Origin: a virus
IMG/VR virus record: IMGVR_UViG_3300017420_000001
Location: 1-51,042 of that record
Strand: one strand, 5' to 3'
Length of the DNA: 51,042 nt
The translations under genes were made by a program, and so were the position numbers. Under the pieces are notes generated by a model. It was given only the letters and a program-made list of their open reading frames with translations, was not told the DNA's origin and made no database searches. Below are positions 2,321 through 30,578 of the stretch, in pieces; positions within the stretch are counted from its first letter, which is position 1, and each line of letters opens with the position of its first letter.

Positions 2321-2349
2321 TTGCATGGTAGCGGGCGCGGGTGTATGGG
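2321..2349 (+). promoter_or_regulatory. Candidate sigma70-type promoter of the plus-strand PAPS-reductase moron
   Basis: TTGCAT (2321-2326), 17-nt spacer, TATGGG (2344-2349). Only 9 nt lie before the ATG at 2359, so the mRNA would be nearly leaderless. Confidence 0.3.
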
Positions 2350-2358
2350 GGTAGGGCT

Positions 2359-3165
2359 ATGCGATTTGTAATCTTTACCAGCTATGGCAACGATAGTTGC
2401 GCCCTCATTCAATGGTGCCATGAACAACAGCTAACCGATATTGCTTGTGTGTATTCCGATACCGGATGGGCGGCGGGCTGGTGGATGCAGCGCGTTGAGC
2501 GCATGGAGCGATGGGTTGCCGGCCTTGGCTTTACGCATCATCGCACTGAAAGCATCGGCTTTGTTGGTCTAGCGCGGCAAAAGAAAGCGTTTCCATCTAA
2601 TCGGTATCAGTGGTGCAGTGGCATCTTAAAGATTGAGCCGGGCGAGCGATGGCTTGAACAGAACGATCCCGACAAACGCGCCGTATGCCTTGTCGGCGTT
2701 CGCCGAGAAGAAAGCGAAGATCGTTCCGAGTTTCCGCGATTTCTGGCATCAAGCCCGTCGCACGGTGGGCGCGTCATGCTTGCACCTTGCGCTGATTGGA
2801 CGGAAGAAACGCGCAATGTGTTTTTAGAGCGCGCAAATATCGTTCCACTCAAACATAGAAGTATGGAATGCTCGCCTTGCATCAACGCTAGTCGCGGCGA
2901 TTTGATCGTTGCGGCGCAAGATGAGGAGCGCATCGCTGAAATTGAGGCACTAGAGATAGAATTAGGATTAGGTGGTGAATTAACCGCCAACGGCAAAACC
3001 AAGGGAGCCATGTTTCGCCCATCGAATAAGATGGGCGCCACGGGTATTCGCGAAGTGGTGGAATGGGCCAAGTCGGGGCGCGGCGGATATGGCAGCGGTC
3101 AAATGCGATTGTTTGATCCCGATCCTGGGCAAGCGGGGTGCTCGTCAGGGTGGTGTGGTATATAG
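2359..3165 (+). CDS. PAPS reductase / PP-loop ATPase family protein (DndC/CysH-like fold), paralogue 1
   Basis: The track ORF starts at GTG 2341; I prefer the ATG at 2359 (MRFVIFTSYGNDS). It has a degenerate PP-loop (SYGNDS), VGVRREES, and four C-terminal Cys (ECSPC, GCSSGWCG). It lies on the opposite strand to its neighbours and is visibly AT-richer. Confidence 0.75.
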   Translation: MRFVIFTSYGNDSCALIQWCHEQQLTDIACVYSDTGWAAGWWMQRVERMERWVAGLGFTHHRTESIGFVGLARQKKAFPSNRYQWCSGILKIEPGERWLEQNDPDKRAVCLVGVRREESEDRSEFPRFLASSPSHGGRVMLAPCADWTEETRNVFLERANIVPLKHRSMECSPCINASRGDLIVAAQDEERIAEIEALEIELGLGGELTANGKTKGAMFRPSNKMGATGIREVVEWAKSGRGGYGSGQMRLFDPDPGQAGCSSGWCGI

Positions 3166-3174
3166 GAGGATTGA

Positions 3175-3528
3175 ATGTTTATCAGCGAACCAGTTCAGAG
3201 TTACCCTGTCAGCATTTTTATTGGAGGACGTGCCAGCGACATTGAAGATCAATGCCGCACCTATTGCGACGAAGTTGGTTTGTGCGTTACATGTACGCCG
3301 ACTTGCTTTGTATATACCGATGGAGAGACGGAGGGGTATATTGTCGGATTGATTAACTATCCGCGCTTTCCTAGTACGCCAGAAGAGATTTGGGCGCACG
3401 CTGAAGCCTTGGCCGAACGGCTGCGGATCGAAGCCGACCAACAATCTTACACCATCCAGGCACCGGATAAGACGGTGTTTTATAGCCACAGAGAGCAAGA
3501 TAACGAAACGGCGACCACCCCGAAGTAG
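3175..3528 (+). CDS. Cys-rich hypothetical protein, partner of PAPS-reductase paralogue 1
   Basis: 117 aa, starting 10 nt after the upstream stop on the same strand. Carries a CRTYCDEVGLCVTCTPTC cluster. No family recognised. Confidence 0.6.
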   Translation: MFISEPVQSYPVSIFIGGRASDIEDQCRTYCDEVGLCVTCTPTCFVYTDGETEGYIVGLINYPRFPSTPEEIWAHAEALAERLRIEADQQSYTIQAPDKTVFYSHREQDNETATTPK

Positions 3529-25265: not shown

Positions 25266-26345
25266 TCAAATCCTCCTTGGCATGATGATTGCAAAGCGGT
25301 CCATGCCATCGCCCACGCGCGCTAAGATCGGCTTTACCGCTTCGGTAATCAGTAACGATAGCCGTTCGCCCGCGAACGCCTTGCACGTCCTCTCTAGGTA
25401 CGCGCTCGACAGCCCGAACGGCGGCAGGTTGCCCGTTACGTCGGCCGCGACCGTATCTACCGCCTCACCTTCTCCCGTGCGCGCCTGGATCGTCACACCG
25501 CTATCATCGGGGCTGATGGCGAGCGCGGCCCCAAACTTGCCCGCCGCATTGCCAAACCCTTTGGTGCCGCTCGCTGCGCTGGCGAGGTCATCGGCTTGCG
25601 CCGTAACCGCAATGGGCGGATCAATGGGCACCGCTTGCATGTAGGCCGGAAACTTGCCCTCGACCAACGGCGCCACCAACTCCCCCTCGGGCCATTGCAA
25701 CGCTACCTTGCGCTTGCCGATAAGCAGCGTGGTGCTATCGCCCATACCCAGCCGCTCCGCTTCTCTGGCGAACGTAACCGGCACGGTCACGGGCTCAATA
25801 TCAGGAGCCTCGCCGTATTCGATCATGGCAATAGCGTCGCCATCGGTAGCAGCGAGGCACAGTTTGCCGTCGCGCGATTGCAGATTGATCCCGCACATAT
25901 TGGCGCGTGTCTTGGCGTCGGTATCGGCGAACGGCCCGGCGAACGCGAAACATTCTACCAGCCGCTTCGCGTCGATTAGGAGGCAAGTGCCATCGAACCG
26001 TTCAAGCGCCGGAAAGGCATCGCCCGCCGATACTTGTAGCTTGCGCCGCGAGCCCTTCGCCTTGATCGTTAGCGCCGAGCCGTCAAGGTCGATATCAAGC
26101 GTATCGGCCTTCATTTTGCCCGCTGCATCGGCCAGCTTGTCGGCGGGCGCCAGCGTGGGCGCTAGATCGCCCTCGCACGGGCTATGCAGCGTAAGCCAAT
26201 ACTCGCCGTTCGATGCAGTGACGGTTAGTCGCCCATCGGTTGCCGATAGCAGTACGTTGCGGAAAGCGGGGACGGGGTTTTTGGCATCGGCAATGCGGGC
26301 GCACGCAGATGCCATGCGGGCAAAATCCTCGGTTGCGATTTTCAT
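25266..26345 (-). CDS. dnaN: DNA polymerase III beta sliding clamp homologue
   Basis: 359 aa. It has PAFRNVLLSATDGRLTVTASNGE, GKFPAYMQAVP and FAIIMPRRI, which are DnaN hallmarks in the three-domain order. Confidence 0.8.
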   Translation of the reverse strand: MKIATEDFARMASACARIADAKNPVPAFRNVLLSATDGRLTVTASNGEYWLTLHSPCEGDLAPTLAPADKLADAAGKMKADTLDIDLDGSALTIKAKGSRRKLQVSAGDAFPALERFDGTCLLIDAKRLVECFAFAGPFADTDAKTRANMCGINLQSRDGKLCLAATDGDAIAMIEYGEAPDIEPVTVPVTFAREAERLGMGDSTTLLIGKRKVALQWPEGELVAPLVEGKFPAYMQAVPIDPPIAVTAQADDLASAASGTKGFGNAAGKFGAALAISPDDSGVTIQARTGEGEAVDTVAADVTGNLPPFGLSSAYLERTCKAFAGERLSLLITEAVKPILARVGDGMDRFAIIMPRRI

Positions 26346-26491
26346 GCGCGCCCTCCTTGAGCCTTATGTTCAGCTTTCACGGTATCGAGAAAATCAGCAA
26401 TGCGCTTCAGGCTGATAGCAATCGACCGTTGCGCCGCCACCACCTCAAACTCCAATTGGTGCTCGCTGGCATCGTATGCGCCGTCCTCCAT
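26342..26491 (-). CDS. Small hypothetical protein (49 aa)
   Basis: Internal ATG at 26491 (MEDGAYDASEH...). It is translationally coupled on both sides. Confidence 0.4.
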   Translation of the reverse strand: MEDGAYDASEHQLEFEVVAAQRSIAISLKRIADFLDTVKAEHKAQGGRA

Positions 26492-26694
26492 CACACCTTC
26501 TCCAAAATGCCGCACCGGCCCATTGCGGGGCCTTCGCCCGCGAAGTCGGTCGGAACCCATCGCCCGCTCCGCACCTCGTCGGGATGCACCACCGCCATTA
26601 GCAGCGTAGTGCCCGGCTTATGCGGCGCTTGTTGATACCATCCCTGCCCGGCCGTGGGGCGAAACTTGCGGCCTGTCTTTGCGCATGTAAGCAT
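26491..26694 (-). CDS. Small hypothetical protein (67 aa)
   Basis: Its ATG at 26694 overlaps the PAPS-reductase stop (TAATG). Starts MLTCAKTGRKFRP... Confidence 0.45.
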   Translation of the reverse strand: MLTCAKTGRKFRPTAGQGWYQQAPHKPGTTLLMAVVHPDEVRSGRWVPTDFAGEGPAMGRCGILEKV

Positions 26695-27911
26695 TATGAT
26701 ACCTCCATATTTCCCGCCGCGCGGGCTTTCTTGATAACCAGATACTTGGCGTACGCTTCGGACTTGGGTTGCGTCAACCCGAGCCCCTTGCACCACCAAT
26801 CATTACGCAACAAAACCTTGCACATCCGCCGCCAGGATGGCGCCCATTGCTTATCCTCCAAAACTTTGGGCGCTTCATCGGGAATAGCATCATAGCCGCG
26901 CCCGCGCCAGCCCTTGATGAACGAGCGGAACCTCTTGATGTAGTGATCTCGCGTTTGCTTGGGCATACTCGATAGCAGCAGGTTTGTGAACGACTTCCAG
27001 CTATGCCCCTCGGGCTTGGTGATTTTTTGATACCCCATGACGTTGCCGCTTTCACCTACGTAAAGCGCGCCACTGTTCGCGCCGTTGACGCGGGCAATCA
27101 GCTTGAACCACGTTTCGGGCTCTAGGATGTGGTACAGCCACAGTCCCTTGCGCTGGTCGTCGCCGTAAGGCTGGCAAAGCCGCTGTTGACTAATCGGCAC
27201 CCCGGCCTTGTGCATAAGGTCATAGATCGCGTTGTGCGGCTTGTCGGGAAACGCAGCGTGGAAGCGCCAGATATCCTCGGTTCGCCAATCATAGATTGGA
27301 TAGACGTTGAACACGTCCGGCGCCACCTCGGTTGTCCACCGCTTGCCGCCGTGCATGGTTTTGTCGAATACCGCGATCGTCCGAAAACGGTTGATACTTT
27401 CATCCGCGCGGATACCCACAAAACCGCCCGTTAGATGCCCATCCGCGTACCACTCTCCAAACAGCACCACGAATTCCTCAAACTCCATACCGGGCTGGAA
27501 AAACGGATAGTGGGCAAGATCGGTCACAGCGTTGCGCGGAAACTCACGCACCCAAATGTCACGCTTGTCAGGCTCCCAACATTGCCAGCGCGGCTCGTAA
27601 TTCGTTACCGCGTTGCGGAGCGACATGGGCAGGCATACCCAATGCAAGTCGATCCACAGCGCATACATCGCGGTCATTTCCTCAATATGCGCGATGGTGG
27701 CGGCGTACTGCGCTTCCAGGTCCACGATAAGCACGCCCACACGCCGGCCGCGCCGCATTGCTTCCTCTAGGACTAGGTGCAGCATGACGCTGCTATCCTT
27801 GCCGCCAGAAAAGCTAACGTAAACGCGCTCCATATTGTCGAACACGTATGCAATCCGCTCGCGCGCCGCATCCAACACGTTCTGTTTGCGGTATTTCTTT
27901 AGCTTGCTCAT
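26694..27911 (-). CDS. PAPS reductase / PP-loop ATPase family protein, IbrA-like (paralogue 2)
   Basis: I prefer the ATG at 27911 (MSKLKKYRKQN). It has a canonical PP-loop (VSFSGGKDSSV) and a long C-terminal extension as in IbrA/DUF3440 proteins. 405 aa. Confidence 0.8.
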   Translation of the reverse strand: MSKLKKYRKQNVLDAARERIAYVFDNMERVYVSFSGGKDSSVMLHLVLEEAMRRGRRVGVLIVDLEAQYAATIAHIEEMTAMYALWIDLHWVCLPMSLRNAVTNYEPRWQCWEPDKRDIWVREFPRNAVTDLAHYPFFQPGMEFEEFVVLFGEWYADGHLTGGFVGIRADESINRFRTIAVFDKTMHGGKRWTTEVAPDVFNVYPIYDWRTEDIWRFHAAFPDKPHNAIYDLMHKAGVPISQQRLCQPYGDDQRKGLWLYHILEPETWFKLIARVNGANSGALYVGESGNVMGYQKITKPEGHSWKSFTNLLLSSMPKQTRDHYIKRFRSFIKGWRGRGYDAIPDEAPKVLEDKQWAPSWRRMCKVLLRNDWWCKGLGLTQPKSEAYAKYLVIKKARAAGNMEVS

Positions 27912-28339
27912 CAATAAAGGTCCGCTTCGGTTTTGCTCTGCGCTTCCTCCAGGCTTAGCGCGGGCTCGCCACGCGATGCAAGCCAAATGTTGAGGTAGCG
28001 CAACGCCGCCTCGTTAGCCGCCAGCTTCTCCCCTTCGTCAAGTTGATTGAACCCGCCGCGAAACTGCGATGGCACGCCCGTTGCGTAGCACATTGCCGCT
28101 TGCCCGAGCCAGGCAATCCGGTTCATACGCTCGTTGCTAAGGTAGTGCTCGCAACTGTTCGGCCAATCCCGCAACAGGCTTTCCATCGTTGCTTCAAATA
28201 GCGGAATGTTGCGTAGAAACTTGCCGTATAGGCGTCGGCATTCGTCTTCGTCTAGCGACTTGTCACGCGGCTTGCTATTGTAGAAACCCGCCGGAAAGCA
28301 CTCCCACCGATCCCATGTGTGATAAACTCGCTGCATCAC
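27911..28339 (-). CDS. Hypothetical protein inserted between the ParB-like and PAPS-reductase genes
   Basis: 142 aa with overlaps at both ends (ATGA and TGATG). W/C/Y-rich N-terminus (YHTWDRWECFPAGFY). No family recognised. Confidence 0.6.
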   Translation of the reverse strand: MMQRVYHTWDRWECFPAGFYNSKPRDKSLDEDECRRLYGKFLRNIPLFEATMESLLRDWPNSCEHYLSNERMNRIAWLGQAAMCYATGVPSQFRGGFNQLDEGEKLAANEAALRYLNIWLASRGEPALSLEEAQSKTEADLY

Positions 28340-29001
28340 GCATCCTCCGTAAGCGGTTCAATCTCGTCTTCGAAGTCATCAACATCCCAAGATGCGCTAA
28401 ACTCTTGATCCGCGAACAATTCCGCTAGTCCGCTAAGCTGGCAAAGGCGCAGCACTTCGTCCGCATCCATGCCTAGCTGTTTGGCAATCTTGGTATCAGA
28501 CCAATTTCGGCGCTTCAACTCGACCACAATATCGGACATAGCCTCTACCCGATGCTTACCGCGCGCTCGGTTGTGGCGAATGGTAGAGGCCATGCGATCG
28601 GTCGCGTCGCGCTGGCTGTTGCGGATTGCCACCAGCGGCAAGTGTCCGTGAACGCGGGCCTGGATATCGGCGCATTCCTTACCGACGCGGTGCCGGTGGA
28701 AGCCGTCGATAACCTGATAGCGCCCATCCTCGTCGGGCATAGACACGATCGGCTGTGTGTAGCCGTCCGCGTCGATCGACAAGCGCAACAATTCCATCTC
28801 GGGCGGGGCAACACTATTCGGATTGTAATCGTTGGCGTATACCGCGTCATTGCGCACCCACCGCACAAAATCGACCGGCTCCGATGCGAACGGGCTATAT
28901 TCGTGGATAAGCGCCCGCATATCGTTTATCATGGCGATAAGCGGCTCGCCTTGCAGCTTGCCTAGCGTTGCTCGCATAGCGGCGGTCAGTAGCGCGTCCA
29001 T
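28336..29001 (-). CDS. ParB/Srx-fold nuclease-domain protein, IbrB-like
   Basis: 221 aa. NPNSVAPPEMELLRLSIDADGYTQPIV...YQVIDGFHRHRV is the ParB N-terminal domain motif set. Confidence 0.8.
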   Translation of the reverse strand: MDALLTAAMRATLGKLQGEPLIAMINDMRALIHEYSPFASEPVDFVRWVRNDAVYANDYNPNSVAPPEMELLRLSIDADGYTQPIVSMPDEDGRYQVIDGFHRHRVGKECADIQARVHGHLPLVAIRNSQRDATDRMASTIRHNRARGKHRVEAMSDIVVELKRRNWSDTKIAKQLGMDADEVLRLCQLSGLAELFADQEFSASWDVDDFEDEIEPLTEDA

Positions 29002-29111
29002 CAGCCTTCCTCCGCGTTATCGGCATGATACCACGCCACATGCACCCATCGCAGTAACAGCGCCGCGAACGCGACGTACATCGCGACGATCATCCAGAAC
29101 CAGTAAGGCAA
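29001..29111 (-). CDS. Leader membrane peptide (36 aa), below the ORF-track cutoff
   Basis: GGAGGA (29121-29116), then a TTG start at 29111. Translation: (M)PYWFWMIVAMYVAFAALLLRWVHVAWYHADNAEEG. Its TGA overlaps the ParB-like ATG. Confidence 0.35.
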   Translation of the reverse strand: MPYWFWMIVAMYVAFAALLLRWVHVAWYHADNAEEG

Positions 29112-29212: not shown

Positions 29213-29380
29213 ATGATCCCCACGTTTCGCGAATGGCTTGCAGCCAACCGCCCCGACCCGATCGCCGCGCAGGTTGATCGCATCCACGCCGCCGCCCGTC
29301 AGCCGCTGTTCACGCCCACCGACAAGCGCCCCGGCGACCGCGTGCTGGGTTCGGGCGGTGTTTGGGGGACGGTGTTGTGA
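29213..29380 (+). CDS. Small hypothetical protein (55 aa), below the ORF-track cutoff
   Basis: AGGAGG RBS with ATG at 29213 (MIPTFREWLAANRPDP...). TTGACA sits at 29158-29163, 49 nt upstream. Confidence 0.45.
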   Translation: MIPTFREWLAANRPDPIAAQVDRIHAAARQPLFTPTDKRPGDRVLGSGGVWGTVL

Positions 29381-29646
29381 GTGCGTATCGCTACCTCGCA
29401 GGCAAGATCGTAGAGTTCAGTCGTGGTGAATACAGCGATTATACAACGTGCGGCCTGATGGTCACACTTCAAGACATCAAACTTGATACGCTAGCTCTTG
29501 CGTATCGGGAAGAATACAAGCCGAAAGGTGTATGGGACAAGCCGAGCCACGATGGCTTCATGGGCTGGCTGGTTGCAAAGCAATACATGGCTCCTATCGA
29601 TTACGATAGCATCCATCTTGGAAGCTATGACGATTGGGACATTTAA
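29377..29646 (+). CDS. Small hypothetical protein
   Basis: The GTG at 29377 overlaps the upstream TGA (GTGA). The track gives a TTG at 29362. Visibly AT-richer. Confidence 0.5.
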   Translation: MSAYRYLAGKIVEFSRGEYSDYTTCGLMVTLQDIKLDTLALAYREEYKPKGVWDKPSHDGFMGWLVAKQYMAPIDYDSIHLGSYDDWDI

Positions 29647-30086
29647 CCAACCAACTCCACAACCCCTAACACCCGCCGCAACTCGGCAACTTTTGCCTCC
29701 AACGCCTCACCAAACTGGCGTTGGAGGCATCCGTATTCATCGGCTTCACCCGTTTTCAGCATACGCTGCAAACGGTTTACGCAATGCTCCTCATACCGCA
29801 TGGCGTTGGATGCATCGTCAATGGGCGCGGCTTCGGGCTGGTACAGCGCGAGGCTTCGACCGTCGCCCACAGTATCCGCCCACCATGCGTGCGTCACGTC
29901 ATGTTCTAGCGTGTAGCGCCACCAATCATCGCCATAACCCGCCCACCGCGCCACGCGCCGCTGTTCGGCGTTATCCACGCCGCTGCGGTGCATCTCGTTG
30001 ACCGTGCCGTCATCGAATGTCGTAACGGCCATGTCGGCGTCCAGGCGAATCGAGCAACGGGCGAATGTCAGGGTTACGGTGCGCAT
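29643..30086 (-). CDS. Hypothetical protein
   Basis: 147-aa W-rich ORF, a lone minus-strand gene between plus-strand morons. Confidence 0.5.
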   Translation of the reverse strand: MRTVTLTFARCSIRLDADMAVTTFDDGTVNEMHRSGVDNAEQRRVARWAGYGDDWWRYTLEHDVTHAWWADTVGDGRSLALYQPEAAPIDDASNAMRYEEHCVNRLQRMLKTGEADEYGCLQRQFGEALEAKVAELRRVLGVVELVG

Positions 30087-30109
30087 CGCATTTTTTTATC
30101 AGAAAGTGC

Positions 30110-30137
30110 TTGACGTGTCCAATGCGTGCGGTAAGGT
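30110..30137 (+). promoter_or_regulatory. Candidate sigma70-type promoter
   Basis: TTGACG (30110-30115), 16-nt spacer, TAAGGT (30132-30137), preceded by a T7 run. GGAGGA RBS at 30155-30160. Confidence 0.5.
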
Positions 30138-30167
30138 GGCGGGGTCAACACGATGGAGGAATGAAAA

Positions 30168-30578
30168 ATGACCAAGGTTGTAGTTAATAAGTGCTATGGC
30201 GGCTTTGGCCTTAGCGATGCCGGAATGCGCGCTTATGCCAAAGCCAAAGGGATAACTTTGTATCCCGAGGATGGCCAATTTGGCATGGTGACGTATTTCA
30301 CGGTGCCCGTTAACGAGCGGTTGGGCGAAATTGATTTTTACAATGCTTCCATGCCCGAACGTAAAGCATACAATCAACGATATCGGCAAGAGCGTCTTTA
30401 CGATGGTGATCTAGAACGAGACGATCCCATCCTAATTGACGTGGTGGAGCGACTTGGCGATGCCGCTAACGGCAGGTATGCTCGCCTTGAAGTGACAGAA
30501 GTTCCCGACGATGTTGATTGGGAAATTGGCGAATATGACGGTCAGGAATGGGTGCAAGAAAAGCATAAAACTTGGTAA
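30168..30578 (+). CDS. Hypothetical protein (moron)
   Basis: 136 aa starting MTKVVVNKCYGGFGLS... It has its own promoter and terminator and is AT-richer. Confidence 0.65.
   Translation: MTKVVVNKCYGGFGLSDAGMRAYAKAKGITLYPEDGQFGMVTYFTVPVNERLGEIDFYNASMPERKAYNQRYRQERLYDGDLERDDPILIDVVERLGDAANGRYARLEVTEVPDDVDWEIGEYDGQEWVQEKHKTW

Follow-up and report, generated by a model that had tools for sequence, protein, structure and literature searches.

The virus record IMGVR_UViG_3300017420_000001 of IMG/VR comprises a stretch of 51,042 nucleotides (positions 1 to 51,042), which is referred to here as the window. Its minus strand harbors four consecutive open reading frames (ORFs) of 36, 221, 141/142, and 405 aa between positions 26694 and 29111, as located in an initial annotation that was made from the sequence alone. 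The 221-aa and 405-aa proteins were assigned to the IbrB/IbrA family, and the protein encoded between them is named X in the following. The three large ORFs are regarded as real genes because hundreds to thousands of homologues were found for each of them; an identical IbrA is also encoded on a 51,060-bp metagenomic contig. IbrB-X-IbrA is a self-contained three-gene phage module, of which X is an integral subunit and not a passenger.

The surroundings of X were compared in the 80 best IMG/VR viral contigs encoding this protein with 50-71% identity. IbrB was located directly upstream and IbrA directly downstream of X, on the same strand, in 80 out of 80 contigs. The same order was found in metagenome contigs identified by exact protein look-up, in the cultured phages Mwe-JY13 of Microcystis and Amjad_SA of Pseudomonas, and in 23 contigs of metagenome-assembled genomes (MAGs) from very diverse lineages (Polyangiaceae, Gemmatimonadaceae, Saccharibacteria, WWE3, Flavobacterium, Thorarchaeota, and Nitrososphaerota bins). 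Furthermore, X accompanies the pair in a permuted order, IbrA-cupin-IbrB-X, in Mycobacterium phages Gaia and Nebkiss, Pseudoalteromonas phage XCL1123, and loci L092 and L117. The doubt raised with the initial annotation, that the 142-aa ORF might not be conserved beside the pair in any relative, is dispelled by these viral loci, MAG loci, and cultured phages, and since X was kept beside the pair in every relative examined, "expanded IbrB/IbrA module" is a fair description.

X also occurs fused to its neighbors. At least four cluster representatives (P0126, P0127, P0155, P0192) carry X at the C-terminus of IbrB, a single ORF of 524 aa (L119) carries it at the N-terminus of IbrA, and in at least five cluster representatives X is combined with a copy of the C-terminal tail of IbrA (40% identity over 63 residues, E=2e-12). 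Such fusions to either partner, together with a synteny that resists permutation, suggest that X is physically tied to both proteins and argue for one working complex. Catalytic-type motifs are intact in both enzymes, and the three-gene unit is under strong purifying selection. The X-bearing form was found only in phage contigs and MAG contigs; X was absent from 72,556 plasmids, and six records of cultured phages contained X compared with 43 records with a near-full-length IbrA match. X is thus obligatory as a third subunit in a large sub-clade restricted to phages and lies outside the ancestral two-gene core.

The junctions between the genes (Table 1) were re-examined. The TGATG junctions at 29001 and 27911 had been read correctly. 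The IbrB/X junction had been given as ATGA; the actual letters are GCGTGATGCAG, which results in GTGA with the GTG start of X or in TGATG with its ATG start, the latter being the start used by gene callers. The coupled chain continues past the IbrA stop toward the clamp gene through a 67-aa ORF at 26694..26491; this gene was also predicted in L095, L096, and contig L122, which is identical, and a PHROG search with it gave no match. Many neighboring genes along the whole 51-kb, almost unidirectional phage genome overlap by 1, 4, or 8 nt at their start and stop codons. Because overlaps occur genome-wide and the chain runs on downstream, they neither delimit a four-gene unit nor show stoichiometric synthesis, which had been deduced from them; start/stop overlap here reflects general gene packing. 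The module was also said to open the replication operon just upstream of the clamp. It does stand at the head of the early/replication operon, beside a divergent intergenic region, but two small genes intervene before the clamp. These two conserved ORFs (67 aa and about 49-72 aa; 26342-26694, minus strand) are coupled to both IbrA and the clamp and are kept in the close relatives L095, L096, and L122; neither has a family match.

Table 1. Features of the ibrB-X-ibrA region and its downstream flank in the window.
Feature	Position	Strand	Characteristics
36-aa hydrophobic ORF	29001..29111	minus	TTG start; AGGAGG 5 nt upstream; stop overlaps IbrB start
IbrB-like protein, 221 aa	28336..29001	minus	ParB/Srx N-terminal domain and helix-turn-helix (HTH)
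IbrB box NDYNPNxVAPPEM	28795-28833	minus	invariant across 97 non-redundant homologues
IbrB box DGFHR	28693-28707	minus	invariant across 97 non-redundant homologues
IbrB box IRHNRARGKH	28552-28581	minus	invariant across 97 non-redundant homologues
IbrB basic HTH	28429-28488	minus	conserved LGMxxDExLRLCQxxG; segment pI 9.6
IbrB FSxxW motif	28387-28401	minus	conserved, ahead of acidic tail
IbrB acidic tail	28339-28386	minus	pI 4.05
Protein X	27911..28339	minus	141 aa from ATG at 28336; 142 aa from GTG at 28339
X motif W-x2-WEC-x3-GFY	28280-28315	minus	conserved
X motif WPxSCEHxLxN	28133-28165	minus	conserved
X motif NRIAWLGQA	28094-28123	minus	conserved
IbrA-like enzyme, 405 aa	26694..27911	minus	PP-loop PAPS_reduct and DUF3440
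IbrA PP-loop domain, PAPS-reductase type	27252-27824	minus	SFSGGKDS at 27792-27815
IbrA basic C-terminal half, DUF3440 region	from 27203 down	minus	pI 9.8
IbrA R-x-C-x-P-x-G	27162-27182	minus	holds only invariant cysteine, C246
IbrA tail module	26775-26900	minus	pI 10.1; copied onto some X proteins
67-aa ORF	26491..26694	minus	ATG overlaps IbrA stop (TAATG); context, outside module
Clamp gene	25266..26345	minus	phrog_947, 9.9e-49

The 36-aa ORF in front of ibrB had been counted as part of the module. Analogous hydrophobic ORFs of 27-32 aa were found at the same place in close relatives (87-97% IbrA identity), each located after a Shine-Dalgarno sequence, ending in (E/R)EG, and abutting or overlapping the IbrB start; the leader ORF of relative L095 reads MMHWCLSLSAWLSFVSVMLWRVHVSCMCEEEG and that of L096 and L098 reads MFWVFMYLAMVAAVVLWFWCASERREG. 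More distant triad loci contained no analogous short ORF upstream of IbrB, and the 36-aa peptide had no match in tblastn, Pfam, PHROG, NCBIfam, or PADLOC searches. Membership of the peptide in a conserved module was thus not borne out, as it occurs only in near relatives, and a function as core component was ruled out by the zero tblastn matches and by the absence of analogues beyond the closest relatives. It is probably a real, lineage-specific upstream ORF, possibly with a role in translational coupling.

Protein X had been described as not assignable to any family, and both sequence and structure searches agree with this statement. The protein of the window had no match in Pfam, PHROGs, NCBIfam, or PADLOC, and a profile search against the PDB found nothing (best E=0.16). 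Its homologues belong to no Pfam family: 78 diverse members scanned singly against Pfam and PHROGs shared none, and single-member matches such as NinB were discarded as noise. The protein is not new to this phage, since it belongs to a very large unannotated family with 1269 homologues in a word-indexed search and 539 clusters at 50% identity in an exhaustive HMMER search, 145 of them below 1e-10. No description of X was found in a literature search, the coverage of which was incomplete, so that an earlier mention is possible. W58 and N72 are invariant in the family, and E63, L66, A75, G78, Q79, A111, and W118 are nearly so; the cysteines singled out initially are not conserved across it. An AlphaFold2 model built on the family alignment is of very high confidence (pLDDT 95.3, pTM 0.89), consists of seven helices, and is all-alpha. 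Foldseek retrieved nothing from the PDB (best E=1.3, TM at most 0.31) and only a 116-aa homologue from BFVD. According to this model, X is a well-folded, unannotated all-alpha domain that would represent a new fold.

Several candidate identities of X were discarded. Repeated weak matches to Erv/ALR sulfhydryl oxidases (E 2-5, TM ~0.3, probability at most 0.15) were dismissed because they are at noise level and because the X cysteines are not invariant. X as a DNA mimic was rejected in view of the family pI, which ranges from 4.2 to 10.5, and X as a sulfur carrier is unlikely with zero invariant cysteines. The X homologue of Microcystis phage Mwe-JY13 (L001:7157-7582, XAI95148.1) is labelled "ParB/sulfiredoxin" in GenBank; this label was apparently carried over from the neighboring gene, as X is devoid of a ParB domain.

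Some of the loci contain additional elements. In IbrA-first loci, a small ectoine-synthase-like cupin is located before IbrB or fused to it (L092:1424-1804; L008, which is Gaia gp104; L009; L117:2817-3260); the cupin may add an enzymatic step in this sub-clade. A cysteine-dioxygenase-like gene near a 3'-phosphoadenosine-5'-phosphosulfate (PAPS) reductase was reported for prophages of M. abscessus (PMC8092301). A third architecture was found on a contig of a Coxiellaceae MAG (L119:420-3092), in which the 524-aa X~IbrA fusion is followed by a 128-aa GNAT-like ORF and then by IbrB. The metagenomic IbrB~X fusion P0127 (637 aa) has an intein-like insert of ~265 aa between DG(Y/F) and TQP of an invariant IbrB box; the insert starts with Cys, ends with His-Asn, is followed by Thr, and has no Pfam match. 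Inteins usually sit at functionally critical sites. P0125 (316 aa) joins a small-terminase domain (Terminase_2, 1.1e-8) with the C-terminal piece of IbrB and a full X; this fusion may point to a genuine connection with DNA packaging, or it may be an artefact of assembly or recombination.

The two partners of X were compared with annotated members of the IbrAB family. IbrB showed 49% identity over residues 4-207 to IbrB of Escherichia phage PhiR5_2, and 49-53% to the adjacent IbrB/ParB-like coding sequences of PhiR5_2 and Streptococcus phage CHPC1230; IbrA matched IbrA of PhiR5_2 with 44% identity over 94% of its length and IbrA of CHPC1230 with 40% identity (both tblastn). These identities and an equal domain architecture uphold the initially noticed match to the IbrB/IbrA pair; judged by sequence and architecture, the two proteins of the window truly belong to the IbrAB family. 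The family comprises >7,000 homologues including YbdNM of E. coli K-12. As in canonical loci, the two proteins are of equal architecture, co-directional, and adjacent, here separated only by X; neither type shows variation in the PP-loop, the single Cys, the ParB boxes, or the HTH. Unlike the ibrB-X-ibrA order described here, the canonical loci L010 and L011 contain ibrA followed by ibrB without X, and in view of this difference, the locus of the window was filed as an IbrAB variant. The X HMM found nothing in the flanking sequence retrieved for the canonical loci of PhiR5_2 and CHPC1230. Canonical IbrAB genes occupy moron-like positions in temperate phages, beside antirepressors.

Among the papers covered by the literature search, none was a biochemical or genetic study of IbrAB that went beyond annotation; activation of eib expression (as annotated) is the only phenotype ascribed to the pair. 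For E. coli, ybdNM is described as an operon of unknown function under H-NS/LysR control (PMC9068703). An association with PAPS reductases is absent from a 2025 survey of ParB-CTPase folds, and a paper on actinophages noted cupin and PAPS-reductase early genes and speculated about a DndC-like role (PMC8092301). The IbrAB pair was already known, and what is new here is a conserved third subunit of predicted new fold together with its natural fusions.

IbrA consists of two parts. Pfam searches identified PAPS_reduct (PF01507; 3.8e-13, 50.3 bits at a cut-off of 22.5) and DUF3440 (PF11922; 2.1e-37, 129 bits at a cut-off of 25), and the protein matched phrog_2302 with 7.6e-84. A canonical PP-loop with a long C-terminal extension had been ascribed to the 405-aa protein, and SFSGGKDS is indeed located at residues 33-40. 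In an alignment of 58 sequences spanning the clade of the window (73-86% identity) and the enterobacterial clade (40-46%), the PP-loop was invariant; exactly one cysteine (C246) was invariant, and C374 was nearly so. The AlphaFold2 model of IbrA had a mean pLDDT of 78.6, high in the PP-loop domain and moderate in DUF3440. A sequence search for solved structures found none. With Foldseek, the closest solved folds to the N-terminal domain were CysH PAPS reductase (E=2.6e-8), CysD ATP sulfurylase, and FAD synthase/FMN adenylyltransferase (E 2.6e-8 to 1e-5, TM about 0.5-0.64 on target), all with a common PP-loop; TtuA, TilS, and LarE were more distant matches, and GMP synthase was also among the structural neighbors. 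CysH, CysD, and FMN adenylyltransferase all act at an AMP-oxyanion bond.

This resemblance raises the question of whether IbrA acts on a substrate other than DNA. The enzyme might thiolate or aminate tRNA or other RNA, act on a nucleotide or second-messenger pool as counter-defence, or take part in sulfur metabolism as a "cysH auxiliary metabolic gene" (AMG), an interpretation widespread in viromics, and its chemistry on oxidised sulfur might then be Srx-like. The substrates of most characterised PP-loop enzymes are tRNA or small molecules, as is reflected in the structural neighbors TtuA, TilS, LarE, and GMP synthase, and the top folds are CysH and CysD. Moreover, small-molecule kinases occur among ParB/Srx-fold proteins, with SbnI being a weak PDB match for IbrB, and in actinophages the module is accompanied by cupins of the cysteine-dioxygenase/ectoine-synthase type. 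However, IbrA missed every curated NCBIfam cut-off and scored far below the families of CysH (TIGR02057, 24.1 vs 254.2 bits; TIGR00434, 16.3 vs 165.1 bits) and CysD (27 bits against a 195-bit cut-off). It shares only 17-18% identity with CysH, CysD, and FMN adenylyltransferase, lacks the ECGLH terminus, and differs from them by about 170 extra C-terminal residues (DUF3440) and by its obligate ParB partner. The C-terminal half of IbrA is strongly basic, its partner bears an HTH, and the flanks, in which no other sulfur-assimilation genes were seen among 150 proteins, consist of DNA-metabolism genes. We therefore consider a non-DNA substrate unlikely, and labelling IbrA as a cysH AMG is not justified.

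IbrB matched ParB_N of Pfam with E=4.8e-5 and 23.8 bits, which is below the Pfam cut-off of 26.3, and phrog_2159 ("ParB-like") with 2.8e-67. The ParB N-terminal (Srx-like) domain with DGFHR, noted before in the 221-aa protein, was confirmed, and DGFHR corresponds to residues 99-103. In 97 non-redundant IbrB sequences, three ParB-type boxes (NDYNPNxVAPPEM...DGYTQP, DGFHR, and TIRHNRARGKH) were invariant and the HTH was kept. In other proteins, ParB pockets of the DGxHR type bind ATP or GTP, not CTP (PMC12704722).

Given the PHROG family name "ParB-like partition protein", IbrB could be a partition or terminase-associated ParB within a DNA-segregation or packaging accessory, its neighbors being unrelated to this function. 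The terminase large subunit among the flanking genes (9 of 150) and the small-terminase domain of P0125 would fit such a role. No ParA partner was found among the neighbors in the window and the 150 flanking proteins, IbrB scored 21 bits at a cut-off of 58.45 for TIGR00180, and it has DGFHR in place of GERRxR and no C-terminal dimerisation domain. Besides, a PP-loop enzyme with obligate linkage and fusions has no place in partition, and we regard this explanation as very improbable.

The neighborhood of the triad was scanned by means of the 150 flanking proteins in relatives mentioned above. These included SF2 helicases (16), the gpA terminase large subunit (9), YqaJ and DUF669 (7 each), DUF2800/PD-(D/E)XK (5), and C5 DNA methylases (3); clamp, RecT, endonuclease VII, Mom, and UDG were also found in triad flanks. 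In the window, the genes downstream of the clamp encode a Sak4-like protein, SSB, a Cas4-exonuclease, and a helicase. The 150 flanking proteins contained neither a cysteine desulfurase nor a DndD/DndE-like protein, and no restriction effector recurred among them. Thus, the module is self-contained and sits in DNA-metabolism neighborhoods.

Phage-borne defence or superinfection exclusion of the Dnd/Ssp/BREX-4 type was considered in this context. Resident DNA would be marked by the module, and an unlinked nuclease or IbrB itself would attack unmarked competitors. ParB-fold proteins are part of many defence systems, for example, GmrSD and DndB, and the moron-like spots of canonical IbrAB next to antirepressors would be in line with such a function. 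The PADLOC matches of IbrA, which were confined to DndC and BrxP, point the same way, but they are fragments (DndC residues 165-243), and a full-length model match was obtained for none of the three proteins. A restriction effector is not consistently linked, the early replication operon that houses the module in the window is part of a gene block that apparently serves the lytic cycle, and the absence of X from plasmids is unusual for defence islands. Taken together, a defence function has a slim chance.

The reading that we prefer is an ATP-dependent machine for covalent DNA modification, in which a complex of all three proteins would use IbrB for targeting, X for bridging, and IbrA for catalysis; we assign it a probability of roughly 40%. 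IbrB would bind DNA via its HTH, and the nucleotide pocket of its ParB/Srx domain would gate access by binding or hydrolysis of a nucleotide, thereby opening or marking the target, possibly with nicking. X would bridge the C-terminus of IbrB to IbrA, probably through the basic C-terminal tail of the latter. IbrA would spend ATP to adenylate an oxyanion or a carbonyl on the nucleic acid, after which C246 would relay a group, with sulfur being the most obvious candidate. The modification would shield replicating phage DNA from host nucleases, and transcription of modified loci might be altered as a side effect, which would account for activation of eib by IbrAB.

This proposal is in agreement with the invariance of SFSGGKDS and C246 across IbrA proteins of the window type and the E. 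coli type, with the basic character of the C-terminal half of IbrA and of the HTH segment of IbrB, and with the DNA-metabolism flanks. It also fits the invariance of the three ParB boxes and the HTH in 97 IbrB sequences, the intein-like insert in one of these boxes in P0127, the AMP-oxyanion chemistry of the closest folds of IbrA, and its PADLOC matches to DndC and BrxP. Moreover, ParB-fold NTPases are partners of DNA-modifying enzymes in other systems, namely DpdB with DpdA and DndB with DndC (PMC12839542, PMC10853773), and SspB/SspD represent the same pairing as DndB/DndC (PMC12839542, PMC10853773, PMC12707154).

Several points weigh against DNA modification. Nothing in the sequences places DNA ahead of RNA, protein, or a small molecule as the substrate. 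The 150 flanking genes include no sulfur donor (cysteine desulfurase), no ATPase of the DndD/SspC type, and no DndE. IbrA has a single invariant Cys and therefore cannot hold an Fe-S cluster like that of DndC; it stays below all NCBIfam cut-offs, DndC included, and the C-terminal half of its model is only moderately confident. The complex itself is deduced from synteny and fusions, and since canonical IbrAB works without X, the latter is not needed for the core chemistry. Finally, the sole published phenotype of IbrAB is a transcriptional one.

The last point leads to a purely gene-regulatory module as an explanation. IbrB would act as a ParB/KorB-like DNA clamp gated by nucleoside triphosphate, and IbrA and X would serve as cofactors, so that promoters of the phage and of prophages are activated or de-silenced without any DNA chemistry. 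Besides the annotated effect on eib expression, an invariant HTH combined with a ParB fold, the position at the head of the early/replication operon beside a divergent intergenic region, and the control of ybdNM itself by LysR/H-NS (PMC9068703) would suit a regulator. Such a regulator has no need for an invariant PP-loop and a catalytic-type Cys in a 400-aa enzyme, which are kept from Mycobacterium phages to archaeal-MAG contigs, nor for the accessory enzymes (cupin, GNAT) that join the module in other lineages. Additionally, neither parS-like repeats nor a convincing promoter exceeded shuffled expectation in a search around the operon, and no repeated operator sites stood out. We conclude that regulation without DNA chemistry is quite unlikely, though less so than a defence function.

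The proposed DNA modification by an IbrB-X-IbrA complex was further compared with known systems. DndB/DndC, SspB/SspD, and BrxP of BREX type 4 likewise combine a ParB-superfamily protein with a PP-loop ATP pyrophosphatase of the PAPS-reductase family, which in their case acts on DNA, and the Dnd logic of a DNA-handling partner and an adenylating enzyme served as the model for the proposed mechanism. In contrast to these systems, DndA, DndD, DndE, SspA, and SspC were not found among the 150 flanking proteins and the scanned neighbors in the window, and neither Dnd nor Ssp has a counterpart of X. IbrA also differs from DndC: it scored 22.6 bits at a cut-off of 290.4 (TIGR03183), it contains DUF3440 in place of the DndC C-terminus, and its one invariant Cys stands against an Fe-S triad and a Cys dyad in DndC.

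A related case is DpdA/DpdB, where DpdA, a separate enzyme, depends on the ParB-like NTPase DpdB for installing a 7-deazaguanine modification in DNA (PMC12839542). DpdB is the best-characterised precedent for the proposed role of IbrB. The partner of DpdB is a TGT transglycosylase and not a PP-loop enzyme, an X-like subunit is missing, and the ParB fold is all that relates the two systems in sequence.

A bolder version of DNA modification is tentative and rather doubtful, namely that IbrB-X-IbrA is a widespread phage-specific three-subunit nucleic-acid modifier with an undescribed, adenylation-driven DNA chemistry on backbone or base, distinct from Dnd/Ssp phosphorothioation, and with X as new-fold adaptor or specificity subunit. 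If true, it would solve the two-decade-old IbrAB/YbdNM puzzle and reclassify thousands of viral "cysH/PAPS reductase AMGs"; DNA modification as such would represent a new anti-restriction chemistry of phages and would account for the effect of IbrAB on transcription. Pairs of the IbrA/IbrB type are very common, and annotations of phage genomes and viromes routinely mistake them for partition proteins or for AMGs of sulfur metabolism. The finding of X makes the IbrAB question experimentally tractable: the natural IbrB~X and X~IbrA fusions are ready single-chain constructs for expression, structure, and activity work, and presence or absence of X is a clean genetic variable for probing the target of the system.

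Apart from the module, the window contains a second PAPS-reductase cassette, which had been noticed before and is real. It consists of a 274-aa gene (2341..3165, plus strand) and a partner ORF (3175..3528), is located on the strand opposite to the IbrB operon inside the structural-gene block, and looks moron-like. The 274-aa protein matched the PAPS-reductase family of Pfam with 1.9e-11, phrog_424 with 7.9e-29, and BrxP (3.4e-12) and SspD (2.4e-9) in PADLOC; it is unrelated to IbrA and 55% identical to a protein of Rhizobium phage RHph_X2_30. The partner is a conserved protein of 117 aa (phrog_4848, 5.7e-35). One phage thus carries two different PP-loop "PAPS reductase" cassettes.

A short block of ORFs (29213-30578, plus strand) diverges from the IbrB operon and includes ORFs at 29362-29646 and 30168-30578 (phrog_16527, 1.4e-28). 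The GC content at third codon positions (GC3) of this block is ~0.47 and thus much below that of the rest of the genome, which suggests that the block was recently acquired.

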